NCBI GenBank assembly: GCA_016284235.1 | Contig: JAEEOK010000046.1 | Coordinates: forward strand, 333 to 64,332 | Length of the DNA: 64,000 nucleotides | Reading direction: 5' to 3' | From: Succinivibrionaceae bacterium | GTDB taxonomy: Bacteria > Pseudomonadota > Gammaproteobacteria > Enterobacterales > Succinivibrionaceae | In this document: positions 1 to 34,615 of the stretch, one piece after another | Layout: each line of letters opens with the position of its first letter | Numbering within the stretch: position 1 is the first letter of the stretch | The notes under the pieces: generated by a model | The model's database searches: none | The model's input: the letters and a program-made list of their open reading frames with translations, nothing else | Told to the model about the DNA's origin: nothing | Position numbers and translations under genes: made by a program

Positions 1-133
1 GAATATCAAAGATACTAATGTTGAAATTATTATCTATCAGATATTCTTTTTTGATAATACTTCTGCCGGATCCTATAAAAACAGGAGAAAGGCAGGTCAG
101 AGTTACATGGTAGACATCCAAATACGATTTCAT
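1..133 (-). CDS. csm5: Csm5 (type III-A RAMP subunit), N-terminal fragment. The gene continues past the window edge.
   Basis: The reverse complement of 1..133 reads MKSYLDVYHVTLTCLSPVFIGSGRSIIKKEYLIDNNFNISIFDI without a stop. Its ATG overlaps the csm4 stop (ATGA). The position after csm4 and the glycine-rich LSPVFIGSG RAMP-like motif fit Csm5. Confidence 0.7.
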   Translation of the reverse strand, partial: MKSYLDVYHVTLTCLSPVFIGSGRSIIKKEYLIDNNFNISIFDI

Positions 134-1173
134 GAATCTATCCCCACAAAAATCGGTTTACCGTAACGATATACAGGATGACTGCCTCCGCGGCATGCAA
201 CGTTCCTTACGCTGCCCTGAAATATCCGCCTGAAGCAGCTGCCGGATTTGAGCATATAAAGATCCCTCTTTTTCATCTGCTGGGATGCAAATCTGTCGGA
301 GGCTATGAATCCGGATCTTTTTACAACAGCATAAGTACCGTTGTCCAGCGCCTGCTCAAGTTCACTGTCATCAGGAAGTGCTATGCTGATGCTCATAACA
401 TTTTTTCCGGTGTCAAGACGCTTTGAAAGAGAAGCAGGAACATCTTCAATTTCAAACTCAAATCTTCCGCAGCCGGAAAAACGTTTTCCTCCAAGTCCGC
501 TGTATGAAAGTGATGACAGCAGATCCTGCAGTAGTTCACCGGTTTGATCGTCATGGTATTTAACTATAATGTACAGTCCTGAATCAGCAAGGGTCTGATC
601 CCAGGTGCCTGAACCGGATCCGCCGGCGCCGGCGGCATTTTTATTTGCGTGATCTAGAGGTGACTTCGGCAGATTTTCATCCGATCCTGTTTTGTTTCCA
701 CAGGCTGAGAATTCACACATACGGATCCTGTAGGGCATAGCTTCCTCGTTGCCCCGTATTGCAGCGCTGACCTTCATATACTGTCTGACGAAACTTCCTG
801 AAGGATCTGAATGTCTGGCCGGATCGAAAGTTCCGTTCAGATAGCTGTCAAAATCGTCAATACTGATGTATTTAAGTTTTTTAAGCTTCTTTTTCAGTAT
901 GGAGTTGCTTCGGGCATGAAGCTCGGTTTCTCCGGCCGACAGAGGCTTGGGCAGAAAAAAGGTGTTTTCCAGCCACGGAAATGCATCTGAAAACAGAAGG
1001 CGGCCGTTTTGCACGGACTGAAGCAGAAATTCATGTTTCCCCTTCTTCAGAGCCTCAATATAGAGTGCTGAAAATAATGTGTCCGCAGCGAAACAGTAGT
1101 CACCTCCGGATAGAGAGTTTCTGCCGAATCTGAAGGGACCGGAAAAACGGAATTTTACAGTTTTGTAGGGCAT
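130..1173 (-). CDS. csm4: Csm4 (type III-A RAMP subunit, Cas10 partner)
   Basis: The N-terminus FRFSGPFRFGR..DTLFSALYIE and the C-terminal GLGGKRFSGCGRFEFE glycine-rich loop are typical of Csm4. It sits between csm3 and csm5. It carries a Gly/Ser-rich insert (AAGAGGSGSGT). Confidence 0.85.
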   Translation of the reverse strand: MPYKTVKFRFSGPFRFGRNSLSGGDYCFAADTLFSALYIEALKKGKHEFLLQSVQNGRLLFSDAFPWLENTFFLPKPLSAGETELHARSNSILKKKLKKLKYISIDDFDSYLNGTFDPARHSDPSGSFVRQYMKVSAAIRGNEEAMPYRIRMCEFSACGNKTGSDENLPKSPLDHANKNAAGAGGSGSGTWDQTLADSGLYIIVKYHDDQTGELLQDLLSSLSYSGLGGKRFSGCGRFEFEIEDVPASLSKRLDTGKNVMSISIALPDDSELEQALDNGTYAVVKRSGFIASDRFASQQMKKRDLYMLKSGSCFRRIFQGSVRNVACRGGSHPVYRYGKPIFVGIDS

Positions 1174-1191
1174 CTGACACCTCCGGAATAC

Positions 1192-1872
1192 CTATTCGGC
1201 ATCATCAGAAACTTGGGAAATAATCTGACTGAGACTGCTTACCAGATTACTGTCGGCATTACCCGCCACCAGTCTGCAGGACAGATCACTGAAGTCTATT
1301 TTGCCGTATCCTCTTGAACCGTGGCCGCCGATATAGTCATATGTCAGAAGTTTCATGCCGAGTGCCAGATTTCTGAAATCCTCTACTGCCTTGTCGTCCG
1401 ACAGTTCGTAGATCATGTTGAGTCCGAATTCTGATCCTCTTACCGCGCGTTCAATCTGCCGGGGGGTGGCCTTGGCTGTAAGTCTGTCGATGGTGTTTTC
1501 GAATTTAACTTCTGTTGAGCTGGAAAGACCGCGCTGCCTGAGTTCATTATAGTTCAGAAGAAACATATCGGATATTTGAATGCGGCTGCATTTTACATGA
1601 TCCTTTACTGCACAGCCGAAAAGCCGAAGCAGTGGTTCGCAGTCTTTATCAGGACTATTCGGGAGTCTGCCATCTCTTCCTGCCAGTTCTTTAGCAAGAA
1701 GCGTTCTGAGTTTGCCCTTGAGAGAACTGCCCGGAATCATAGGCTGATTGGTCCAGACGTCACGCATCACTGGGGAATCAACTGCGCCAATGGCGGCAAA
1801 GGCTGAAGAACCGCCGATGTGCATACCTGTTTTAACCGTGATTTTTCCGGTAATCTGAATTTTTGCAAACAT
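1192..1872 (-). CDS. csm3: Csm3 (crRNA-binding backbone RAMP, target RNA nuclease)
   Basis: Contains KTGMHIGGSSAFAAIGAVDSPVMRD, including the conserved Asp used for target RNA cleavage, followed by IPGSSLKGKLRTLL. The 226-aa size is typical. Confidence 0.9.
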   Translation of the reverse strand: MFAKIQITGKITVKTGMHIGGSSAFAAIGAVDSPVMRDVWTNQPMIPGSSLKGKLRTLLAKELAGRDGRLPNSPDKDCEPLLRLFGCAVKDHVKCSRIQISDMFLLNYNELRQRGLSSSTEVKFENTIDRLTAKATPRQIERAVRGSEFGLNMIYELSDDKAVEDFRNLALGMKLLTYDYIGGHGSRGYGKIDFSDLSCRLVAGNADSNLVSSLSQIISQVSDDAE

Positions 1873-1883
1873 AAAGACTTCTC

Positions 1884-2351
1884 CTATATATCACTTCCGC
1901 CGTGAAACCTGTTATAGGCAACAAGTGCCTCCATATAATGATAGAACAGCATAAATCTTTTTTTGCTGTTTCCTATTTTCTTAATTTGCTCGTTAAGTCT
2001 GGAGATTTGGAGAAATTTATCAACTTCTTTGTCTCTTCCGGCAGCATAGGCGCATCTGACCCTCAGGTAATCAATTCTCTCCACCAGCTCCTGCTCAAGA
2101 GAATCGCTTTTGTTTTCTGATGTCAGAATCTGATTGAGAATATCTGCAGCCATGGCAAGAATGTTTCTCAGCTGCGTGGTCGTTATGAGTTTTTTTGACT
2201 CTTTAAGATAAAGAATAACCTTTTCAGCATCATCGACATAACTTGTCTCTGTGACCTTGACATCAGGAGCCGGTATGTCCGGCCTGTTCTGATAGTTATT
2301 GCCGCCGCCGCTTCGTCCATGATTGCGATTACCTCCGTAACTGCTGTTCAT
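1884..2351 (-). CDS. csm2: Csm2 (type III-A small subunit) with a Gly/Asn/Arg-rich N-terminal extension
   Basis: A 155-aa helical protein between cas10 and csm3 with a TTTQLRNILAMA motif typical of small subunits. Its start overlaps the cas10 3' end by 23 nt. Confidence 0.75.
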   Translation of the reverse strand: MNSSYGGNRNHGRSGGGNNYQNRPDIPAPDVKVTETSYVDDAEKVILYLKESKKLITTTQLRNILAMAADILNQILTSENKSDSLEQELVERIDYLRVRCAYAAGRDKEVDKFLQISRLNEQIKKIGNSKKRFMLFYHYMEALVAYNRFHGGSDI

Positions 2352-4770
2352 TTTCGCCTCCGCTTTTCTCTCTGTTCATATAGACATATAACTGAATTGC
2401 TGTTCTTAATTCTCTGCAGTCTTTTTCACTGCTCATCCACTCGTATATATTTCTTGAAAAACTGCTGTATGCCTGCTTTTCTTCAGCCGGAGCACCTGAC
2501 GGCGGCTCCAGCCGTGAAAGCAGATAGGCAAGTCTTGCAAAACTGATTTTTTCCCTGCGTGAGCAGATTAGTTCCATTATTCTGTAAAGAAAACTGTTGC
2601 CTCTGCTGTCGGACGTACCGAAAAAATCTGACAGCACTTTGAATTTGCTACCTGCGACTTCTGCTTCAAACTCACTCCAGGAAAATGTGCCGTCATCAAC
2701 TGTCACGCCGTTTTCATCATGAAATGTTCCGTTTGAAAACAGCGTCAAAGCCGATTTGCCGGGACGTCCTTTTGATGCGTCTTCGTACACTGCTGTCTCC
2801 TCCGCGGCAGCACTTACCGGATATGAATCTGAATAAAAACCGATGCCTGCAGAAATAGTGAGGGCTCCGCAGGTATATTTTTTCAGATTTCTGCTGATAT
2901 CCACTGCACACTCAATCACTTCGTTCCATGCACCAATCAGGAATATGTCATCACCGCCTGAATAGACGATTGTCACCTTTCTGTTCTGTTCCGCCTTTTT
3001 TCCACTGAGAGTGAATTCAGAGCGTTCAAGAATTGTATTTATGTGATGCTTGAAAAAAAGCGACAGTGATCTGGAAAGAGCCGCAGTTCTTGCCAGGTTT
3101 ACATATTTCGCACCGTATTTTTTGCTTTCAAAGCCCTTTACAAAGGTCTGCCCCAGATTGTCAACGTCCGCTCTGAGTACCGCGATGCGTTTGATTCCGG
3201 TGCTTTCAGCTGCCAGCTTTTCCATCACGCGATCATAGTAGTAGTCGCCGACCCACAGTCTTGTGGCAACACCTGTTTCACTGACAAAACTGTTTTTGGA
3301 ATATACTCTTACCGGTTTATTATTTTCTGAATTCAGTCTGATCTTGAGATCGTCAGGGGTATCTGCCACAAGACAGCAGTCACCGGGCAGCGGAAGGGCA
3401 TCAGATCCCGAACCCTTAAGCACGGTAAAATAGCACCCTCCGTTTTGTATTCTGTTTGAAAACTCCTCAAGCTGCAGGCAGGATGCACACTTTCCTTCTT
3501 TGTTCAGATGACCGGTTCTCCGGCAGACGCTGCATTCCCTGGTATAGTCATCGTGCTCGAGGCTGTTGAGCCTTTTCAGTTCTGCTGCACTGTATCTGCA
3601 GTTCTTGGCACGGTTGATTTCTTCACCTATTGCAATGAATACCTGTCCCAGGGAACCGTTAGGGCTGTTGCACAGTGCTGCCGGGGAGCAGATGCCGGCT
3701 CCGGAACTGAGAAACAGAGAAATATCAAAAGCGTCAATCAGCCACCTGTTGATACTGCGGCAGAAACAGGACAGTTTTTCCTTTGTGTCCCTGAGATTCG
3801 GGAGCAGGATATAGCAGTGTCCTCCGCCCGAGTAGATCAGGTTCATTCTGCAGAGGGAAAATTCGTCCAGCAGCATATCAATCATATGCTCCATAAGCAG
3901 TTCAAGATAGAAAGAGCGTGAGCGGAGTGTCTTGAGAGCCTTGTCTGTGGTGATAGTGTAGATAAAGTCCTGTATGCCGCATAGATCCATGGAGAACATG
4001 ACAAGCGAGTCGGTCTGAAGAAATCTGCCGCCGCAGTCGTTCAGAAAATTCTCCGGCTCGGCGATCTGCTGATCTTTGATGTATTCGTCCAGGGCAAGCG
4101 CCAGAGCGACACTCATTTTCATGTGATCAAACATTGAAATGTCTGCAGAAACCGCTGAACAGAATGCCGGCACATATGTAGTGTTGACTTCAAGAATTTC
4201 AAGAAGTGAGGAAAGATATGAATCCGAATACTCAAGTTTTTTAAGACTTTTTTCTATGTCGGTCATTATTTTGCGGTAGAATTCCTCGTTCAGCTTCTGA
4301 CTGCTGCCATGACTGACAGCGCCGGAACCGGAAGCTGTGCCGCATTTAAGCTCATGACCGGAAAGAGGAAATCTGATCCCTTCATCCAGTTTTGCTGCGC
4401 CGTAGAAGTATTTCTCCTGAGTTTCCGGAGAATTTCCGCGCTCATCAAGATTGAGCAGATTGTAGATGCTTTCAAACTGACAGTCTGGATCCTCTTTTGC
4501 CGCCGGAGCATCGTAACTTTGGAGTCCGATTGACGCCGCCGCAATATTTCCTGCTGTTTTTACCAGAGTCAGTATGTATGAATCCGGGCATTTTTCAGGA
4601 TCACCGGCTGGATCCGGCGCACCGGAGTATGCTTTAAGATTGTCCGGAACGGAACAGCGTGTGAGAAAATCAAGTCCGCAGGGATCCGCGCCTGCCGATG
4701 CCCTGGCTGCAAGTCTGCTTATGTTAGATACAAGAGATGCAAGTGCGATTTTGATCTGATGTTCTTTCAT
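2329..4770 (-). CDS. cas10: Cas10/Csm1 (type III signature protein). Cyclase palm is intact and the HD motif appears degenerate.
   Basis: Shows SGGGHCYILLP (palm 1), a Cys4 zinc module CSVCRR..GKCASC, and VTIVYSGGDDIFLIGAW (the GGDD cyclase motif). The N-terminus reads IKIALASLVSNISRLAAR where canonical proteins have ..LLHDIGK. Confidence 0.9.
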   Translation of the reverse strand: MKEHQIKIALASLVSNISRLAARASAGADPCGLDFLTRCSVPDNLKAYSGAPDPAGDPEKCPDSYILTLVKTAGNIAAASIGLQSYDAPAAKEDPDCQFESIYNLLNLDERGNSPETQEKYFYGAAKLDEGIRFPLSGHELKCGTASGSGAVSHGSSQKLNEEFYRKIMTDIEKSLKKLEYSDSYLSSLLEILEVNTTYVPAFCSAVSADISMFDHMKMSVALALALDEYIKDQQIAEPENFLNDCGGRFLQTDSLVMFSMDLCGIQDFIYTITTDKALKTLRSRSFYLELLMEHMIDMLLDEFSLCRMNLIYSGGGHCYILLPNLRDTKEKLSCFCRSINRWLIDAFDISLFLSSGAGICSPAALCNSPNGSLGQVFIAIGEEINRAKNCRYSAAELKRLNSLEHDDYTRECSVCRRTGHLNKEGKCASCLQLEEFSNRIQNGGCYFTVLKGSGSDALPLPGDCCLVADTPDDLKIRLNSENNKPVRVYSKNSFVSETGVATRLWVGDYYYDRVMEKLAAESTGIKRIAVLRADVDNLGQTFVKGFESKKYGAKYVNLARTAALSRSLSLFFKHHINTILERSEFTLSGKKAEQNRKVTIVYSGGDDIFLIGAWNEVIECAVDISRNLKKYTCGALTISAGIGFYSDSYPVSAAAEETAVYEDASKGRPGKSALTLFSNGTFHDENGVTVDDGTFSWSEFEAEVAGSKFKVLSDFFGTSDSRGNSFLYRIMELICSRREKISFARLAYLLSRLEPPSGAPAEEKQAYSSFSRNIYEWMSSEKDCRELRTAIQLYVYMNREKSGGENEQQLRR

Positions 4771-4791
4771 GTTTTATTCCTGCTGTTTTTT

Positions 4792-5550
4792 TTATTCTGT
4801 ACCCCTTTTGCCGGGTGTATTCGGCACCAGGCGCAGGGCTCCCATACCCAAAAATGTTTTGATCCCTACTCCAGAGTATTCTCCGAATTCTGCCAGCAGT
4901 CGCGCGTATCGGGCCATGGTGGCGCTGCCGTTAATTTTGATTGTCATTGAGCCAGTAAAGGCGGGAATGGTTGCGTTCTCAAGCGGGAACGGAATGCTCC
5001 GCAGTCTGTAATTCCTGACTGATGAGTTATCAATCAGCTGGAGCAGAGTTTCTTCGTCAAACATTTCCATATCCGACGCTGCTGAAAACCGGTTCATCCA
5101 GCTTTGAAAAATCAGTCGCAGATCAGGCAGATTAACGTAGCGGGATGCACTCTTGAAGGAAACTGGTGACAGGAATTCGATGTTTATAAATCTGTCTGGC
5201 TCCGATGCACTGTAGAATCTTTCAATCAGTTCCTTTCTTGTTCCAAGTCGTATTTCCTTGCTGACGAATTTCAGCAGAATTCCGTCTTTGAGCTCGTACT
5301 CTGTTTCTGTCGCATTCAGAACAGGCTCTATTATGTTGCGGAAAGCTTCTTCATTAAGGCCTTTAATGTGCCAGAATTTTTTTTCACCAAGTTCCAGAAA
5401 CTGACTGCAGGGAATCTGCACCATCGAATGAAGCTTTTCACAGTATTCAGGTGAAATAAGCTGCATTAGAAGTCCGTGCATATTAGAAGATTTGCGATAA
5501 CTGAATGAGCTATCATCTGTTGTGAATTCTATTTTGAGACTTGACAGCAC
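4792..5550 (-). CDS. cas6: Cas6 endoribonuclease (pre-crRNA processing)
   Basis: Has the C-terminal glycine-rich loop GEYSGVGIKTFLGMGAL characteristic of Cas6. A GTG start is preceded by GGAGG. It is the first gene of the cas6-cas10-csm2-5 operon. Confidence 0.8.
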   Translation of the reverse strand: MLSSLKIEFTTDDSSFSYRKSSNMHGLLMQLISPEYCEKLHSMVQIPCSQFLELGEKKFWHIKGLNEEAFRNIIEPVLNATETEYELKDGILLKFVSKEIRLGTRKELIERFYSASEPDRFINIEFLSPVSFKSASRYVNLPDLRLIFQSWMNRFSAASDMEMFDEETLLQLIDNSSVRNYRLRSIPFPLENATIPAFTGSMTIKINGSATMARYARLLAEFGEYSGVGIKTFLGMGALRLVPNTPGKRGTE

Positions 5551-5663
5551 ATGACCTCCATGAATGATTAAGTGCTATCTTACTATAGTATAATTATTAT
5601 GATTTGTGACATTAAGTCACTTTTGTTTATAAAATTCAATTTATTTTTATGAATTGCTGATCG

Positions 5664-5797
5664 GTTTCAAATATTTGAACGGCTATGTTAAGGAATAGAG
5701 TTGATCCTAAAATTTACCTGATAAATTATAAATTTATCCAGGCTATAAATTTTACTTTTTGAAGTTTAAAAATATAAATACTTACGAAATGTATCGT
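5664..5797. repeat. Left arm of a diverged inverted repeat that brackets the CARF gene
   Basis: The reverse complement of 5768..5794 (ATACATTTCGTAAGTATTTATATTTTT) is identical to 8841..8867. A second block, the reverse complement of 5678..5698 (CTATTCCTTAACATAGCCGTT), matches 8936..8956 with one mismatch. The sequence between them is recognisably related with indels. Confidence 0.85.
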
Positions 5798-5974
5798 GTT
5801 TCTGTGATATCAAAAACTTTGATGAACAGAGCATACCTTTTTTGCCATATTCATACATCTCCGTTAAGTTTTTGGTATTAACAGACTTAACGGAAATACA
5901 CGAATTTTTTGTCAGGCACGTGGATATGAATGTTTATGCTGCAGTGTTATTTTTTGTAAAATCTCAGGATCAAA

Positions 5975-8782
5975 TTATTCTGAATCTTCTGAAGATACAG
6001 CATCTGAATTATTCGGTTCGTTCTCATTACATAAACATTCATCTGTTGAAGTCTGTTCGCTGTCAGATTGCTGTTCTGCTGATTTTCTTGCAACCAGTTC
6101 AAAAAATTCATCCTTGAATTTATACAGTTGTTTCAGTTCATCAGCTGATTCTTTAATTGTTTTCTCAAGAACAGGTATGTTCAGTCCGGCGGCGCTGAAA
6201 AAATTTTTCTTCTGTTCTTTATCGAAAAAAATATCTTTTCTTGCTTCATTGAAGTCAAATCCTCCGAATTTGGCGGAACATGATTCTTTGATCTCGGATG
6301 TTATATAGCGTCTTAGTCTCTTTATCAAATCAAAGTTAGAATTGATATGTATCATTCTGCAGGAGTTTTCTACTATTTCTCCATATTTGCGCATCTTAGC
6401 ATCCATTTTCCTTTTTTTGCCCGAGCGATGTTTTTCTGGCAGTTCGCTTATATATTCACACTCATCTTTAACCATAGAATCCACCAGATCTGTATAGTCG
6501 TACAATGATGCATCCATCCAATCAACTTTCTTGATTTCAGAATTTTTATTGAGTTTCTCGGCAAAAGAGTTGTATGCCTCATATAATGCGCAGATGGCCA
6601 TAGAATACCGGCCTTTTTTACAGAAACTGACAGCCTTGGAGAACAGTTCGCTTTTAACATTCTGCAGATTTTTTTCAAAGAAAGGAAAAATCATATTCAG
6701 TAGTTTGTCTTTTGAACTCAGATCTATAGAGGATATGATTTCAAGAGCCTGTTTATAACTCTTCTGAGCAGTGGAAAAGTAAAGCATTTTTTCTGCTTTT
6801 GATCCTTCACTTATGCATTTGTACAGTTCTGACTGTTCAGGAAGATATCGGTTAAGGAGAGGAAGCAGATATCCGGGATCTTCCGATCCGTTAAAAAGCC
6901 CCACAGACATTGAATCACTGATCATGTTTGCCAGATATGTCAGATCGAGCAGTTTTCCACAGTTCTTTCCATGGGGTAATGAATACCAAAGATGTTTCAG
7001 TTTTGATCCTTTGAGAGCCGTTACAGAGAAGAGAGTAAGAAATGCAACTATAGGGATACTTCTGAAACTGTGGGTAATATCTACTATGAAGTCCTGACCG
7101 GGAGCGATAGAGCTGGTCAAGAAGGTTCTTAATTCTTCGTATGAGTTTTGATTGGAATAGATATCGTCATAGCCAAAAATTTCGATATACTGTCCCAGCG
7201 TCTTTTTATGCCTTTCAAAAAGACTGTTGATTCTGGTTACAGCGTCTTCGTTCAGCCTGTAATCTTCCTGCATACCGTTTCTTTCGTTTTTCATGTATGC
7301 ATATTCCTTGAAACATTGCTCGATTTCAGCCAGGACATCAATTGCATCAAGAGAATCGTTATACTGTTCGAGCAGAAAATCAACAAAACCCTTCCATCCG
7401 CTGGTGTAGGTTCCAATCACTACATACTTGGATATCTCGCCTTTTTTGAAATATTCCATCGAAAGAGAATTGGCAATAAACCTTGATTTGCTGATTTCTA
7501 ACTCTTTTATGTCAAATTCCAGCTCATCATACCTTGCGCTGCCTATAAATGTAAAAAAGACAGGCAGCGGGGCTTGATCGGGTTCGCCGGATGTATCTTT
7601 GCCGCGAATTATTTCGTTGCTGTACAGAAAAGATTTAAGGTTGCTGCCGTAATCTACTATGCTGTTATCTTCGCGGTCGGCATATTCATAGTGGAGGATC
7701 CTGTTTCTGAATTTCAGATATTTATCTCTTTTTTTATCACTGTCGGCAAAAGGATCATGAATACCACTGAGTCTTATATACTCGAGCAACAGAATTGCAC
7801 TGAACATCTGTTCATTGTCGATGTATCTGCGAAGCAGCAGATACATATCTGAACTCAGTGATTTTGTTATTTCTTCAAAAAATTCCGGGGTAAAGACGGT
7901 GCTGTCTCCGAAGAAACTGTTAAGTTTCGGCAGTATATTGCCAAATACTGTTCTCGGTTTATCAAATTCCTGTAAATTCAGACGTTTATCAATCTCCAGC
8001 AAGCCACTGCTGATATTGGTGTCTGTGCATATTCCGGCAATATGATGAAGACGAACACTGTCAGAAAAAAGTGAGTAACAGACAGACTCATCATATATTC
8101 TGTTCAGCATGCCAAGACTGATAAATGAGCTTTTGCTACCCTGATTCTGTGCATAAAAAATATCGGCGATACGTAAATTCTGAATATTCTGAAGAAATTT
8201 TAATGATGCAAGCACTAGAAGCGGAATGAACCTGAAGCCGTTTGTCACATCAAGATATATGTATCTGTTTAGGAACATTTCTTTACATTCGAGAATTTTT
8301 TCAATGATGTCTGTCTGAACTGAATATGAAGAAATATCTCCATTGTAGATCAGGATTGTCAGGCTGCACTTATAGTGCTTTTTTAGAATCTCGTTAATCT
8401 CATTCTGAATAAGTTTGATCTCATCCGGCTCGCACTTTGCTGTTGCATCAAAAATTTTTTCCGGACTTTCTGCATTATGCATAGTGGCATAATCTTCACT
8501 ACTGCAACCTGCAATACGATCAGCAAAAGGAAAAGGAATTCCGTCCATGGCGAAAAGATGTTTGAAATTAAGCACCATATCAAACCAGTAACTTGAGTCG
8601 GAACCGATAATCAGTATGTTTCGAAATGATTTTTTTTGATTCTGCTGCAGATGCTTGAACAGGGCAAGTCCGGGATAGCAGAATTCAACTTTATCAGAGC
8701 ATCCATGAAAGTCGTACATTGCTTTTGTGTATTGTGTTTTGCCATACATGGCTACTAAACAGTTATCTTTATCTGGATTCAT
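5975..8782 (-). CDS. Tandem-CARF protein. Two fused DxTHG/TM1812-type (Csx1-like) units are followed by an acidic tail. It is a candidate cOA-sensing ancillary effector.
   Basis: Unit 1 has CLVAMYGKTQY.., ILIIGSDSSYW, DVTNGFRFIP (aa 178) and KFRNRILH (Rx4H, aa 359). Unit 2 has PVFFTFIGSARY.., YVVIGTYTSGW and DITHSFRSIP (aa 568), with no clear second Rx4-6H. It is a continuous 935-aa ORF immediately upstream of cas6 on the same strand. Confidence 0.7.
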   Translation of the reverse strand: MNPDKDNCLVAMYGKTQYTKAMYDFHGCSDKVEFCYPGLALFKHLQQNQKKSFRNILIIGSDSSYWFDMVLNFKHLFAMDGIPFPFADRIAGCSSEDYATMHNAESPEKIFDATAKCEPDEIKLIQNEINEILKKHYKCSLTILIYNGDISSYSVQTDIIEKILECKEMFLNRYIYLDVTNGFRFIPLLVLASLKFLQNIQNLRIADIFYAQNQGSKSSFISLGMLNRIYDESVCYSLFSDSVRLHHIAGICTDTNISSGLLEIDKRLNLQEFDKPRTVFGNILPKLNSFFGDSTVFTPEFFEEITKSLSSDMYLLLRRYIDNEQMFSAILLLEYIRLSGIHDPFADSDKKRDKYLKFRNRILHYEYADREDNSIVDYGSNLKSFLYSNEIIRGKDTSGEPDQAPLPVFFTFIGSARYDELEFDIKELEISKSRFIANSLSMEYFKKGEISKYVVIGTYTSGWKGFVDFLLEQYNDSLDAIDVLAEIEQCFKEYAYMKNERNGMQEDYRLNEDAVTRINSLFERHKKTLGQYIEIFGYDDIYSNQNSYEELRTFLTSSIAPGQDFIVDITHSFRSIPIVAFLTLFSVTALKGSKLKHLWYSLPHGKNCGKLLDLTYLANMISDSMSVGLFNGSEDPGYLLPLLNRYLPEQSELYKCISEGSKAEKMLYFSTAQKSYKQALEIISSIDLSSKDKLLNMIFPFFEKNLQNVKSELFSKAVSFCKKGRYSMAICALYEAYNSFAEKLNKNSEIKKVDWMDASLYDYTDLVDSMVKDECEYISELPEKHRSGKKRKMDAKMRKYGEIVENSCRMIHINSNFDLIKRLRRYITSEIKESCSAKFGGFDFNEARKDIFFDKEQKKNFFSAAGLNIPVLEKTIKESADELKQLYKFKDEFFELVARKSAEQQSDSEQTSTDECLCNENEPNNSDAVSSEDSE

Positions 8783-8837
8783 AAATGATCCTTTATTATC
8801 AAAGCTATGTTCAACAGAAGTGTGATGCCGCAGAAAT

Positions 8838-8973
8838 TCAATACATTTCGTAAGTATTTATATTTTTGAATTTAAACGGCAAAGTTTACAGCCCGGATTA
8901 CTTTATGATGTATCATGCTGATTTCAGAATCTACGCTATTCCTTAACAGAGCCGTTTGAACAAGTATGCTGAA
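8838..8973. repeat. Right arm of the inverted repeat that brackets the CARF gene
   Basis: 8841..8867 is the exact inverted copy of 5768..5794. 8936..8956 (CTATTCCTTAACAGAGCCGTT) is the inverted copy of 5678..5698. Confidence 0.85.
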
Positions 8974-9194
8974 AGCAGGAAATCAATCTGTTCACGCGAA
9001 AAAATCATTTCCGACCTTATAAAATTATCATCCGGTGCGAAATATGTGTCCAGATATGTAAACAGTGGTATGTTTGAACACACTTTGCATGATGCATGTT
9101 TGAACATACCTTGTAGTTTTAACTGTTTATGCTTCTTTTCCTGAGATTGCAAAAACGGGCAATGTTAAAGGCTGTGTTTCAATATTACTGCATC

Positions 9195-10160
9195 TTACTG
9201 ATCTGGATTTTCTGCCTCATCTGCATCGTCAATTACAGTAGGATCAAACAAATCCTCCGGTGTCTTGATTACAATCATGTCGCATGCAAGTTCATCCATT
9301 ATCATTTCAGCTGTATTGCCGATGACTGTTCCTGAAAAACCGTCTCTTCCTACGCTTCCCATCAGAACTGCTGTTGCATTCACCTCTTCTGCAACATTTG
9401 GAATAACATCCTCCGGATCTCCGGTTTGAATATGGACATTATCAGGAGAAATGCGGTGATCATCGGCATATCGTTTTATTTTGGAGGTATGATCGTTGAT
9501 AACAGCCTCGTTGTATGTGCTTGGAAGATATCCAGGAACCTCAATATATGTGTTGAGGAGAGGATTCGGTACGGCATGAACCAGGTGGATCCTGCATCCT
9601 GTGATTTTAGCCAGGATCTGAGCTTCCCTGAGAAGTTTTCTGTTTACACGGTTACAAAAACCGAGTTCTGTATAGCACAGAGCTACAAGAATAACTCCGT
9701 CGGCGATCCATTGCTTCTCTTTTACCAGAATAACCGGAATGGTTGCTTTTCTCAGCAGCTTCCAGTCGACAGGAGTCTGCAGTAATCCGTAGATAGAATT
9801 ATTTACTGCACATGTTTTAATTATCAGATCATAGTTTCCTGCTTTGAGTTCTTTTCCAAGAGCACTTCCTGCACTTCTTGACCATACCACTTTTACATTT
9901 ATGTTTTTGTTGTCAATATCGTGCTCTTTTATAACCTGTTCAACCTCAGCCTCCTTGGCATCGATTATTTTGGAGAGCATTTCCTCCTTTTCAGTAAAAG
10001 ACATGATTGTAGACAGTTCATAGGAAAAATCGAAAATTGCAAGAAAAACTGTGACCTTTACGTCGGGATCTCTTTTAGCCAGAAAAAAAGCTTTTTCCAG
10101 GGCATCAGTGTTGTAGCCACCTGCATCCAGTACAAGAATAATATTGCGGTATTTTTTCAT
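9195..10160 (-). CDS. uspE: Universal stress protein E (tandem USP domains)
   Basis: A 321-aa protein with FLAIFDFSYELSTIMS, TPVDWKLLRKATIPVILVKEKQW and GNTAEMIMDELACDMIVIK. These closely resemble E. coli UspE, and the acidic C-terminus also fits. Confidence 0.85.
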   Translation of the reverse strand: MKKYRNIILVLDAGGYNTDALEKAFFLAKRDPDVKVTVFLAIFDFSYELSTIMSFTEKEEMLSKIIDAKEAEVEQVIKEHDIDNKNINVKVVWSRSAGSALGKELKAGNYDLIIKTCAVNNSIYGLLQTPVDWKLLRKATIPVILVKEKQWIADGVILVALCYTELGFCNRVNRKLLREAQILAKITGCRIHLVHAVPNPLLNTYIEVPGYLPSTYNEAVINDHTSKIKRYADDHRISPDNVHIQTGDPEDVIPNVAEEVNATAVLMGSVGRDGFSGTVIGNTAEMIMDELACDMIVIKTPEDLFDPTVIDDADEAENPDQ

Positions 10161-11590: not shown

Positions 11591-14065
11591 TTATTCTTCA
11601 GATTTCTCCGGCTGTCCCATCGGTACGGCTGCGAAATTCGAAAGGGAATTTGCACCGGCTGCACGACCTGACACTTTCGGTTCGGTTCGCGCGAGTATGT
11701 AGTCTGCCTGCTGAATTCCCGGTGCCAGATCATGATGTTCAGGCAGGGCAGGTTCGCTGCGGGAAAATTCGATCTGGGTTGCTCCGGACGCCCTCAGGGA
11801 GTTGTCTTTATTGAAATCTCCAAATTCTCTGCCGCTGTATGCTGAGGTTTCAAGCAGCTGTCTGTGCTCAGGCTGGGCAGGAGCGCTTGTTGAGAATTTA
11901 ATTTCAGCAGCTCCGGCAGGGAAAATTCTAGGAGTCTGAATTTTTGCTGTATGGGCAGCGGCTTTCTGAGCGGCAGAATCAGTGCGGACAGCAGGTTTTC
12001 TTATGCTTTCAGGCTTCTGGCGAGGAGATATCTCCTGACTCTGAATTCTTTCGTCATTCTGTCTCACCCTGGTGCGTACATCACGGCGTTCTCTGCGCTC
12101 GCGACGTTCCCGCTTCTCTTTTGAAGTGTCCGGCGTCTGTACAGGTGTCGCATTCTGCTGTTGCTGGAACTGTCTGTGCTGCTCCTTGACGGCTGCAGGA
12201 TTCTTTTCAGTCGAAGCTGGTCTCTCCTGATTTTTCCTGCGGTTTATCTGTGATGCACGGTTTCTTTCATTCTGCTTCTGAGTCTGAACTTCAGTTCTGG
12301 AAGAGTTTCTGCGATCACTGTTTCTTCCGTGTCTCTGGCCGCGGTGGGAATTCTTTTCATTCTTTTTGCTGTCTGATGAACCGCTGAAAATTGATTTGAA
12401 TGCACCGGCAATCTTCTTGAAGAAGTTTGTGCAGGAAATCTTGGTAGGGGTAGGAGCAGGCTCCATATCCTGTACAGCCATAACACTGCTTACAGCCGCA
12501 ACCTGCTTGTCAGATGTACAGTTCTCCTTTTCTGGCACATATGCACGATCCTCGGATATGCGGTGCGCGGTTATATGCTCCTCCTCTCCGCGATCGTTTT
12601 TCCTCAGACGGTACACCTCGTAGTGCGGTGTTTCAAGATCCGCATTAGGAATTATGTAAATCTTTACGTCATGACGCTTTTCAATTGAACTTATTGCGTC
12701 CTTCTTGTCATTGAGAAGGTATGCACCCACCTTGATAGGAACCTGGGCATGAACCTGTTCGGTGTTGCTCTTAAGAGCCTCCTCTTCAATAAGATGCAGA
12801 ATCGAAAGAGAAAGCGATGAAACATCACGGATAAATCCCTGACCTTCGCAGCGCGGACATACATGAGTACTGGTGTCATTGATGGAAGGACGGATCCTCT
12901 GTCTTGAAAGTTCAAGAAGACCGAATCTTGAAATCTTGGCAATCTGGATTCTGGCGCGATCTGACTGTACAGCCTCACGCATGCGGTTTTCAACTTCACG
13001 CTGGTTTTTGGCGGGAGTCATATCAATGAAATCAATAACAAACAGACCTCCAAGATCTCTCAGGCGGAGCTGACGCGCTATTTCATCAGCAGCTTCAAGA
13101 TTGGTCTGAAGTGCCGTTTCCTCAATGTCTCCGCCCTTTGTTGCCTTTGCCGAGTTGATATCAATTGACGTCAGAGCCTCGGTAGGATCGATTACGATTT
13201 CACCGCCGGAAGGGAGTCTTACCTTGCGCTGGAATGCAGATTCTATCTGATTTTCAATCTGATAGTGGGTAAAGAGAGGTACTTCATCGGTGTAGAGCTT
13301 TATGCGGTTCGAGAATTCTGGACGGACCATGCTGACGTGTTTGAGAGTCTTTTCATAGACTTCCTTGTTGTCAATTATTATTTCACCGATGTCTGGTCTG
13401 AGATAGTCTCTTACGGCTCTGAGAATTACGTTGCTTTCCTGGTAGATAAGAAACGGAGCCGGTTTTTCGTTTGCAGCCTTCTTGATGAAATCCCACAGTC
13501 TGGTAAGGACCTTGAGATCCCATTCGAGTTCCTGGGATGATTTGCCTACACCAGCGGTGCGGATTATTATACCCATGCCGTGCGGAACACTGATACTGTT
13601 GAGTGCCTCTTTCATTTCATCGCGCTCATCGCCTTCGATTCTTCGTGAAATGCCGCCGGCACGCGGATTGTTCGGCATCAGAACAAGAAAACTTCCTGCC
13701 AGACTGATGTATGTGGTAAGTGCAGCACCTTTGAGACCGCGTTCCTCCTTTTCAATCTGGACTATCACTTCCGTACCTTCAGGCAGTGCTTCCTGCAAAT
13801 CTGTTCTTGATGAGTAGGTATGTCCGTCCTTGAAGTATTCTTTAGCTATTTCCTTGAGAGGAAGAAAACCGTGTCTTCCTACACCGTAATCCACAAAAGC
13901 GGCTTCGAGACTTGGCTCAACTCTTGTGATGACTCCTTTGTAGATGTTGGCCTTCTTCTGTTCATGTCCCGGACCCTCAAGATCCAGATCATACAACTTT
14001 TGGCCGTCTACCAGGGCAACGCGCATCTCAACATCCTGAGTTGCGTTGATTAACATTCTTTTCAT
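11591..14065 (-). CDS. rne: Ribonuclease E
   Basis: The N-terminus [30 protein letters not shown], an S1/catalytic half that includes [12 protein letters not shown], and an Arg/Pro/Gln-rich low-complexity C-terminal scaffold. Confidence 0.95.
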
Positions 14066-34138: not shown

Positions 34139-34615
34139 ATGAGGGTAGCGGCATTTATTCTGACAGTTGTTCTGTCTCTTTTCTCCTTGAATGTTTCAGC
34201 TGAAACGACAACGTACCGGGATCGTGACGGCAGAGCGCTGGGTACAGCCACCACGAGCGGCAATACCACAACCTACCGGGATCGCGACGGCAGAGTTACG
34301 GGCACTGCTGTCACATCAGGAGGCAGAACCACCTACCGGGATCGCGACGGCAGAGTTACGGGCACGGCTGTTACATCAGGAGGCAGAACCACCTACCGGG
34401 ATCGCGACGGCAGAGCAACGGGCACGGCAACTTATTCCGGCGGCAGAACAACCTACCGTGATCGTGACGGCAGAGCAACGGGTACGGCAACTCACTCAGG
34501 CGGCAGAACAACCTACCGTGATCGTGACGGAAGGACGGTGGGAACATCTGAACATAAGGGGCCCGGCAGAAATTTACCTCCGGATCGCAGACGTGATCAC
34601 CGCCTGAGAAGATAG
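34139..34615 (+). CDS. Secreted protein made of 20-aa TTYRDRDGRxxGTAxxSGGR repeats
   Basis: Has an SD (GAGGTG) plus an ATG at 34139 and the signal peptide MRVAAFILTVVLSLFSLNVSA. About six consecutive 20-aa repeats follow, and the last unit is frame-scrambled. Confidence 0.7.
   Translation: MRVAAFILTVVLSLFSLNVSAETTTYRDRDGRALGTATTSGNTTTYRDRDGRVTGTAVTSGGRTTYRDRDGRVTGTAVTSGGRTTYRDRDGRATGTATYSGGRTTYRDRDGRATGTATHSGGRTTYRDRDGRTVGTSEHKGPGRNLPPDRRRDHRLRR
34201..34600 (+). repeat. 60-bp tandem repeat, about 6.6 copies, inside the repeat-protein gene
   Basis: The units stay in register every 60 nt. 34271..34330 and 34331..34390 differ at two positions. Outer copies are progressively more diverged. Confidence 0.95.

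Follow-up and report, generated by a model that had tools for sequence, protein, structure and literature searches.

Inverted MITE-like repeats around a CARF-CARF-HEPN gene suggest that a type III-A CRISPR effector arrived in a transposon-like cassette

Why should a single CRISPR effector gene lie between two long inverted repeats, and do these repeats switch the gene, regulate it or mark the way it arrived? The question is raised by a 64,000-nt stretch of DNA from a Succinivibrionaceae bacterium (assembly GCA_016284235.1, contig JAEEOK010000046.1, positions 333 to 64,332; hereafter the window), in which a gene for a 935-aa protein with CARF domains lies between uspE and the cas6 gene of a type III-A CRISPR locus. 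Type III CRISPR ancillary effector genes are swapped freely between loci, and the arrival route of a given gene is rarely visible. A first-pass annotation of the window had noticed the repeats and read them either as the sites of a serine invertase or as the scars of cassette capture. We consider it probable that positions 5681-8953 form a non-autonomous transposon-like cassette, in which two inverted copies of a miniature inverted-repeat transposable element (MITE)-like sequence of about 150 nt flank one CARF-CARF-HEPN gene, the whole having been inserted as a unit. The parts of this proposed cassette are as follows.

5681 to 8953, no strand assigned: whole cassette, a putative 3273-bp non-autonomous composite (MITE - CARF gene - inverted MITE), delimited as the sum of its parts
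5681 to 5833, plus strand: left MITE-like unit, 153 nt, on the cas6 side; outer terminus GGCTATGTTAAGGAATAGAGTTGA, inner terminus (reverse complement) TGCTCTGTTCATCAAAGTTTTTGA
8803 to 8953, minus strand: right MITE-like unit, 151 nt, on the uspE side; outer terminus (reverse complement) GGCTCTGTTAAGGAATAGCGTAGA, inner terminus AGCTATGTTCAACAGAAGTGTGA
5768 to 5794, no strand assigned: left copy of a 27-nt perfect core, the exact reverse complement of 8841-8867
8841 to 8867, no strand assigned: right copy of the core, 59-85 nt upstream of the CARF ATG
5673 to 5680, no strand assigned: left copy of a putative 8-bp target-site duplication, ATTTGAAC, abutting the outer terminus GGCT at 5681
8954 to 8961, no strand assigned: right copy of the putative target-site duplication, GTTTGAAC, from flank comparison
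5975 to 8782, minus strand: cargo, a gene for a 935-aa CARF-CARF-HEPN (Csx1/Csm6-type) type III CRISPR ancillary effector, assigned by profile matches, motifs and GC content

The anatomy of the repeats is as the first-pass annotation had described it. Two copies of the 27-mer ATACATTTCGTAAGTATTTATATTTTT, and no more, are present in the window, at 5768-5794 (minus strand) and 8841-8867 (plus strand), the two copies being exact reverse complements; no such copy arose by chance in 100 shuffles, even allowing three mismatches. The outer blocks, 5678-5698 and 8936-8956, match at 20 of 21 positions, and the homology claimed for the sequence between the blocks is borne out by self-BLAST (78% identity over 156 nt, E=3.5e-31). 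A repeat search joins core and outer block into inverted arms at 5678-5812 and 8823-8956, and past about 5678-5835 and 8800-8956 similarity falls to the level of shuffled sequence; candidate extensions of the homology into the first codons of the CARF gene or further outward were not significant. When the element termini are taken as bounds, the two units (5681-5833, 153 nt; 8803-8953, 151 nt) are identical at 119 of 154 positions, and the perfect 27-nt run is longer than expected under uniform divergence at 77% identity (permutation P=0.014). The arms lie just outside the 935-aa gene, 141 nt past its stop (5975) and 21 nt ahead of its start (8782). A profile built on them matches nothing else in the window, and no further copy of the element was seen in the 64 kb. 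Four independent assemblies span the segment (L001-L004: a JGI contig, an NCBI metagenome contig, a Logan contig and a metagenome-assembled genome, MAG); they represent two strains 0.7% apart, the MAG being the diverged one, and the window matches the sequence of L001.

What kind of sequence the arms may be became apparent from another genome in the same samples, in which contigs L005 and L055 can be set against sister contigs L052-L054 that carry empty alleles.

L055 1-26 and 2121-2144, L005 1-27, L052 2761 and 4826, no strand assigned: element ends (L055, L005) and empty sites (L052), by contig comparison

L005, which carries a 60% identical CARF homolog, begins ...TCAACACTTTTCCTGAACAGAGCC/GATTATTATATGC (here and below a slash marks the junction). 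Its first 28 nt are unrelated to L052-L054 at that point, and from ATTATTATATGC onward all four contigs are collinear. Reverse-complemented, these 28 nt read CGGCTCTGTTCAGGAAAAGTGTTGATTT and are identical to the outer termini in the window at 22-23 of 28 positions, with both ends falling on the same base. L055, reached via a truncated variant (637 aa) of an upstream 649-aa protein, ends ...GGATTATTA/GGCTATGTTCAAGAAAAGTGTTGA, a junction that can also be given as ...ATGGATTATTA/GGCTATGTTCAAGAAAAGTGTTGA, and at this site the sister contigs L052-L054 run uninterrupted through ...ATGGATTATTATATGC. The element recovered from L055 and L005 thus has ends GGCT...AGCC, terminal inverted repeats matching at 22 of 24 positions and a perfect 8-bp target-site duplication, GATTATTA. 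There is a second copy: at the start of L055, 180 nt ahead of the 649-aa gene, the same right end abuts ATAATTAT, and L052 has no insertion at that point. Two insertion sites with their empty alleles, both in this one other genome, show that the element family is mobile and indicate that it is probably multi-copy and strain-polymorphic. The Logan contigs break 24-27 nt into the element, as a repeat that collapses a k=31 graph would make them do.

The gene between these insertions deserves a remark of its own. The 649-aa gene, of unknown function, lies upstream of the 60% CARF homolog; two element copies in the same orientation flank it in some strains, and one of these copies cuts the 649-aa protein to 637 aa.

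The ends of the two arms in the window align with one another and with the L055/L005 termini, sharing terminal inverted repeats of the form GGCT[A/C]TGTT... (search pattern for the family: GGCTNTGTTNANGAANAGNGTNGA). A terminus profile run with nhmmer recovers both ends of the left unit (E=1.2e-4 outer, 5.6e-3 inner) and of the right unit (E=7e-5 outer, 3e-3 inner). The inner ends are degenerate, TGCT or AGCT replacing GGCT; still, the inner terminus of the right unit is identical to the left terminus of the polymorphic L055 element at 20 of 24 positions. Both units are of MITE size and without a transposase gene, their open reading frames (ORFs) reaching at most 40 aa. Judged by length and ends, each arm is a MITE-like unit of 151-153 nt with its own terminal inverted repeats. 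The first-pass annotation had allowed that a dispersed REP- or MITE-like repeat at many unrelated sites would speak against its proposal; this is borne out in part by the same termini in another genome, which tell against a switch and not against a mobile cassette.

Were the arms inserted singly or together? The L055/L005 case, which is independent of the window, had fixed beforehand both the termini and the 8-bp length of the duplication to look for. The outer flanks of the cassette, ATTTGAAC and GTTTGAAC, match at 7 of 8 positions (P(>=7/8)=9e-4 at the local base composition), while the inner flanks, TACCTTTT and ATTATCAA, are unlike each other and match the outer flanks at no more than 3 of 8. 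Since the outer flanks match and the inner ones do not, the duplication would belong to the composite and not to either arm, a pattern that we infer to be the signature of one 3273-bp unit insertion rather than of two MITE insertions. The cassette sits in the uspE-cas6 spacer, 123 nt (counted to the target duplication) or 130 nt (counted to the unit terminus) upstream of the cas6 start at 5550, and one Logan contig crosses both arms unbroken. On this reading the empty site is predicted to read ...AATATTTGAACAAGTATGC..., or in longer form TGCTGATCGGTTTCAAATATTTGAACAAGTATGCTGAAAGCAGG.

The cargo is a CARF protein, as had been proposed. The 935-aa product matches TIGR02221 at 91.6 bits (cutoff 76.25) and the DxTHG model TIGR02549 at 48.2 bits (cutoff 21), and the PADLOC Csx1/Csm6 CARF+HEPN model covers residues 408-914 (E=4.6e-46), adding a HEPN domain to the CARF assignment. 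With Csm6/Csx1 CARF-HEPN nucleases it shares a CARF domain with DxTHG, an R-x4-H HEPN motif and a cas10-csm neighborhood; it differs from them in its unusual length, its two CARF modules and the lack of a Pfam match. The single canonical R-x4-H motif is RNRILH at residue 359, between the two CARF modules, and no canonical R-x4-6-H motif was found in the C-terminal module; nor did the protein give a Pfam match or a solved relative by sequence. Its GC content is 38.0%, against 46.6% for the csm genes, 44.9% for cas6 and 46.7% for the window. Relatives are few: only three clusters at 90% identity among 5.8 billion proteins, in three unrelated genomic contexts.

A comparison of related genomes had been advised by the first-pass annotation. 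Related csm operons, with Cas6 proteins 69-71% identical, have no homolog of the cargo gene beside cas6, which favors a cassette; an inverted orientation appears in none of the four spanning assemblies. One of the related csm loci, L043, shares its CRISPR repeat family with the window lineage. In L043 we also noted a 23-nt inverted repeat (20/23; 7982-8004 and 9907-9929) around a 521-aa gene of unknown function upstream of cas6, which we set aside as probably due to chance, one of its arms lying inside a called ORF. Relatives of the CARF gene at 60-61% identity occur in two other unrelated neighborhoods, both without the arms, and no inverted repeats were found around these homologs (L005/L052, L006, L056-58). 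Near the 61% homolog of the second cluster (L056 613-1664) lie a RelB/YafQ toxin-antitoxin pair, a PDDEXK protein and a recombinase fragment, so that this neighborhood looks like a mobile or defense island.

These observations suggest the following sequence of events. A transposase supplied in trans would have acted on the two outermost termini, so that the whole MITE-cargo-MITE segment moved; movement as a unit is inferred from the flank duplication. The unit would have entered the uspE-cas6 spacer, duplicating 8 bp of target, (A/G)TTTGAAC, and thereby put a gene for a cyclic-oligoadenylate-responsive effector immediately ahead of cas6-cas10-csm2-5, as the only CARF effector of the locus. As the right unit ends 21 nt ahead of the CARF ATG, transcription of the gene would either start inside that unit or read through it. 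The core holds a TATAAAT directed at the CARF gene, its equivalent in the left unit being directed into the 3' end of the same gene, and the 27-nt core is in our view a candidate promoter or transposase/host-factor site; a promoter scan found no canonical sigma-70 pair common to both arms. Given arms that are 23% diverged and no transposase nearby, the cassette is probably immobile today.

Several other contents of the arms were considered and rejected. Outward ORFs ending TFRKYLYF*, an ending that the 27-nt core encodes, are present in both (5766-5810, minus strand; 8825-8869, plus strand). Further upstream these ORFs differ between the arms, and synonymous changes are lacking in the core, so that conservation of the core acts at the DNA level and the ORF is probably not a gene. 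As to a known RNA, Rfam gave no match in the arms, their folds are unremarkable (z=-2.6 and -0.8) and the two arms have no conserved hairpin in common. A CRISPR-derived origin found no support either: the arms resemble neither the repeat nor the leader or trailer, and the 10 CRISPR spacers have no match in the window (0/10). One further structure lies within the cargo segment.

5849 to 5910, plus strand: imperfect hairpin with 21-nt arms (5849-5869/5885-5905) followed by TTTTTT, terminator-like on the plus strand only

It stands between the CARF stop and the left unit, 16 nt inward of the latter, and is conserved in L004. Its polarity is wrong for a canonical terminator of the CARF mRNA, and the sequence suggests at most a terminator of plus-strand transcription.

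Of the explanations that compete with insertion as a unit, the one that survives best is that the CARF gene had its place upstream of cas6 beforehand and never moved, and that two MITEs landed separately on either side of it, in opposite orientation by chance. The family does insert repeatedly within a few kb elsewhere, as the two copies flanking the 649-aa gene in L055 illustrate, and arms that are 23% diverged could be different family members, these two being the only copies in 64 kb. Yet neither arm has an 8-bp duplication of its own: the inner flanks reach at most 3/8, against 7/8 for the outer ones (P=9e-4). The CARF gene, moreover, has a GC content 8-9 points below that of its csm neighbors and is missing from related csm operons. 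We regard two independent insertions as unlikely, if worth keeping in mind.

A second possibility is that the arms are a duplicated regulatory module, that is, copies of a promoter or operator that place the effector and the csm operon under one regulator, with the core as the operator. This would account for a core that is nucleotide-identical in both copies and for the position of the arms, the right one 21 nt before the CARF ATG and the left one 130 nt before the cas6 start. There is also precedent, since csm6 of M. tuberculosis is under operator control by the repressor CasR (PMC9953421). The copies, however, are oppositely oriented relative to the genes they precede and share no sigma-70 pair, the core is not palindromic, and no regulator gene is present in the island; the terminal repeats and the target duplication would be left unexplained. 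As the origin of the arms we find a regulatory module very unlikely, although a regulatory role could be secondary to a transposon origin.

The reading that the first-pass annotation put first was an invertible segment. In the form considered here the segment is phase-variable, the 3 kb between the cores being flipped either by a site-specific recombinase whose gene lies elsewhere or by RecA through the 27-bp identity. The geometry of the cores does resemble that of the Hin/Gin/Cin systems, RecA-dependent exchange needs an identity of about 27 bp at the least, and a perfect inverted 27-nt core within diverged arms is a run longer than chance would give (P=0.014). As that annotation had remarked, no recombinase is visible in the window: among its ORFs of 150 aa or more, none gave a match to a recombinase, integrase or transposase domain. 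All four spanning assemblies (4/4), from two strains, show the same Usp>CARF>Cas6 order in the same orientation. A break inside the right arm of a Logan contig (L049) was examined as an inversion junction and rejected, as it falls 31 nt before the core, the wrong place for a branch, and is probably a coverage effect. The core also lacks the dyad symmetry of hix and gix sites: in ATACATTTCGTAAGTAT 10 of 17 positions are self-complementary, and the symmetry is limited to the ATAC...GTAT ends. Like the Hin/hix, Gin/gix and Cin/cix switches, then, the locus has inverted sites of about 26 bp flanking a segment of 1-3 kb; unlike them it has no adjacent invertase or dyad-symmetric site and shows no second orientation among the four assemblies, and its repeats are whole element copies with about 150 nt of homology rather than a short site. 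Inversion was further supposed to uncouple the effector from flanking promoters, which does not obviously follow: because both arms carry the same module, a flip at the core would give the CARF gene an equivalent upstream region, and this weakens the logic of a switch. With the arms accounted for by a mobile element with termini and target duplications, we give an invertible segment, whether of the serine-invertase kind or not, very little credence, although rare inversion may occur.

Scarcely credible, finally, is a rearrangement relic, in which a staggered-break inversion or template switching left an inverted segmental duplication whose arms are neutral debris: diverged arms (77% identity) that are private to the lineage and unmatched among plasmids, phages and viral contigs would suit it, but their terminal inverted repeats match the ends of an insertion-polymorphic element to the terminal base, and a direct 7/8 flank match is not expected from inversion. 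Intramolecular inversion of the IS26 type was likewise discarded, its reverse-complement flank signature being absent.

Several points weigh against the cassette itself. The duplication in the window is imperfect (7/8) and lies in a near-palindromic sequence, TTCAAATATTTGAA (5666-5679), that also mimics extended inverted homology. An empty-site allele of the cassette locus was not found, all assemblies of the lineage carrying the cassette at the same place; this may reflect poor sampling, the nearest Cas6 relatives being only 71% identical. The same composite turned up at no other site, and no cognate transposase was identified in any locus examined. The L055/L005 element is known by its ends and may be either a 150-nt MITE or a complete insertion sequence, with or without the 27-nt core. 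Beyond the window, where the first-pass annotation had recommended a search for the 27-mer, a 21-mer of the core has no match in 185,579 GTDB species-representative genomes; a 19-mer has 34 matches in JGI metagenomes, all attributable to chance (flanks about 25% identical), and IMG/VR has a single match of the core, also due to chance, and no match of the outer-block or terminus patterns. Since these searches gave chance matches at most, the evidence for dispersal comes from one other genome. A distant BLAST of the arms against plasmids and phages also gave no match. The perfect 27-nt core, lastly, is left unexplained by the transposon model alone. The notion of a captured or mobile cassette, offered in the first-pass annotation as the alternative to inversion, nonetheless gains most from the analysis, through MITE-like arms with terminal inverted repeats, outer flanks matching at 7/8 and a polymorphic family with an 8-bp duplication elsewhere.

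How does such a cassette compare with known mobile elements? In architecture it resembles IMU/MITE-flanked integrons and the mobile insertion cassettes (MICs) of Bacillus. To our knowledge no composite of miniature elements carrying a type III ancillary effector has been described, and a full-text literature search returned no case of such a composite with this kind of cargo. TIMEs offer the closest comparison: in a 2014 report (PMC4133298), pairs of these miniature elements were shown experimentally to form composite non-autonomous transposons. The two are alike in that small transposase-less elements with terminal inverted repeats bracket the cargo, in that the unit moves with a target duplication at its outer ends (as proposed here for the cassette) and in AT-rich targets; they differ in that TIMEs have 38-bp Tn3-type termini, a duplication of 5-6 bp and 262-bp units, against GGCT[A/C]TGTT, 8 bp and about 150 nt in the cassette.

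The termini themselves offer a lead to the IS6 family. The left inverted repeat of IS6100, IR-L, is GGCTCTGTTGCAAA (PMC10470526), and IS6 elements make 8-bp direct repeats (PMC1590026); the 14-bp ends of the family have the form GG(C/T)NCTGTTGCAAA. The uspE-side terminus GGCTCTGTTAAGGA has its first 9 nt in common with IR-L and 10 of 14 positions overall, the likeness ending after the ninth nucleotide. An 8-bp duplication is also seen in L055/L005 and, at 7/8, in the window. IS6 elements differ from the cassette in moving via cointegrates and in typically forming directly oriented pseudo-compound transposons. ISL3-family elements, with ends GGCTCTT..., an 8-bp duplication and AT-rich targets, fit the cassette about equally well, and an IS6-like transposase would be one candidate for the activity in trans.

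The surrounding genes place the cassette within a larger acquisition. On the minus strand the window encodes RNase E/G (11591-14065), UspE (9195-10160), the 935-aa protein (5975-8782) and Cas6 (4792-5550), followed on the same strand by Cas10, Csm2, Csm3 and Csm4, with Csm5 beginning at the window edge; the remainder is housekeeping (fab, thi, his, dsbB, nhaB and others). Relatives of this UspE are found in rumen Aeromonadales/Succinivibrionaceae, those of MAG RUG14131 and RGIG4771 being 93% and 78% identical. In RUG14131 a gene for a leucine-rich repeat (LRR) protein directly follows uspE (L041 2049-2200) and the type III-A island is absent, whereas in the window lineage an 11.5-kb block separates uspE from the LRR-protein gene. 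This block holds the right arm, the CARF gene, the left arm, cas6-cas10-csm2-5 and an 11-repeat CRISPR array with a 36-nt repeat, GTAACAATGACCACTTCCCCGTAAGGGGACGGAAAC, and extends over window positions 1-9194 plus L001 4912-16443. Because both arms lie in a block that RUG14131 lacks, they are within a horizontally acquired island. No cas1 or cas2 was seen adjoining the island, and there is no second CARF gene from uspE to the gene past the CRISPR array.

Two further features of the window may be recorded here. A perfect palindrome, GTGACATTAAGTCAC (5606-5620), coincides in part with promoter-like hexamers (GTCACA-17-TATAGT) located some 30-60 nt ahead of where cas6 starts and is a possible operator of the csm operon. 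Elsewhere, an ORF without a Pfam match holds five tandem 60-nt units that are 65-95% identical (34208-34507).

It is tempting to go further and suppose that MITE pairs of this family are a vehicle that shuttles CARF-type effector genes among the type III loci and defense islands of rumen Succinivibrionaceae, with the core as a portable promoter or a site of occasional inversion. We hold this broader idea to be unlikely on present evidence; if true, the modularity of effectors would be partly transposon-driven. At this one locus the footprints of a cassette are legible, in its terminal repeats, flank duplication and lower GC content, in the lack of the gene from related operons and in a mobile family that shares its ends, so that the capture of a cyclic-oligoadenylate-responsive nuclease gene by a transposon-like cassette may be offered as one testable example and not as a general rule. 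Long inverted repeats around a defense gene, in any case, need not signal phase variation.

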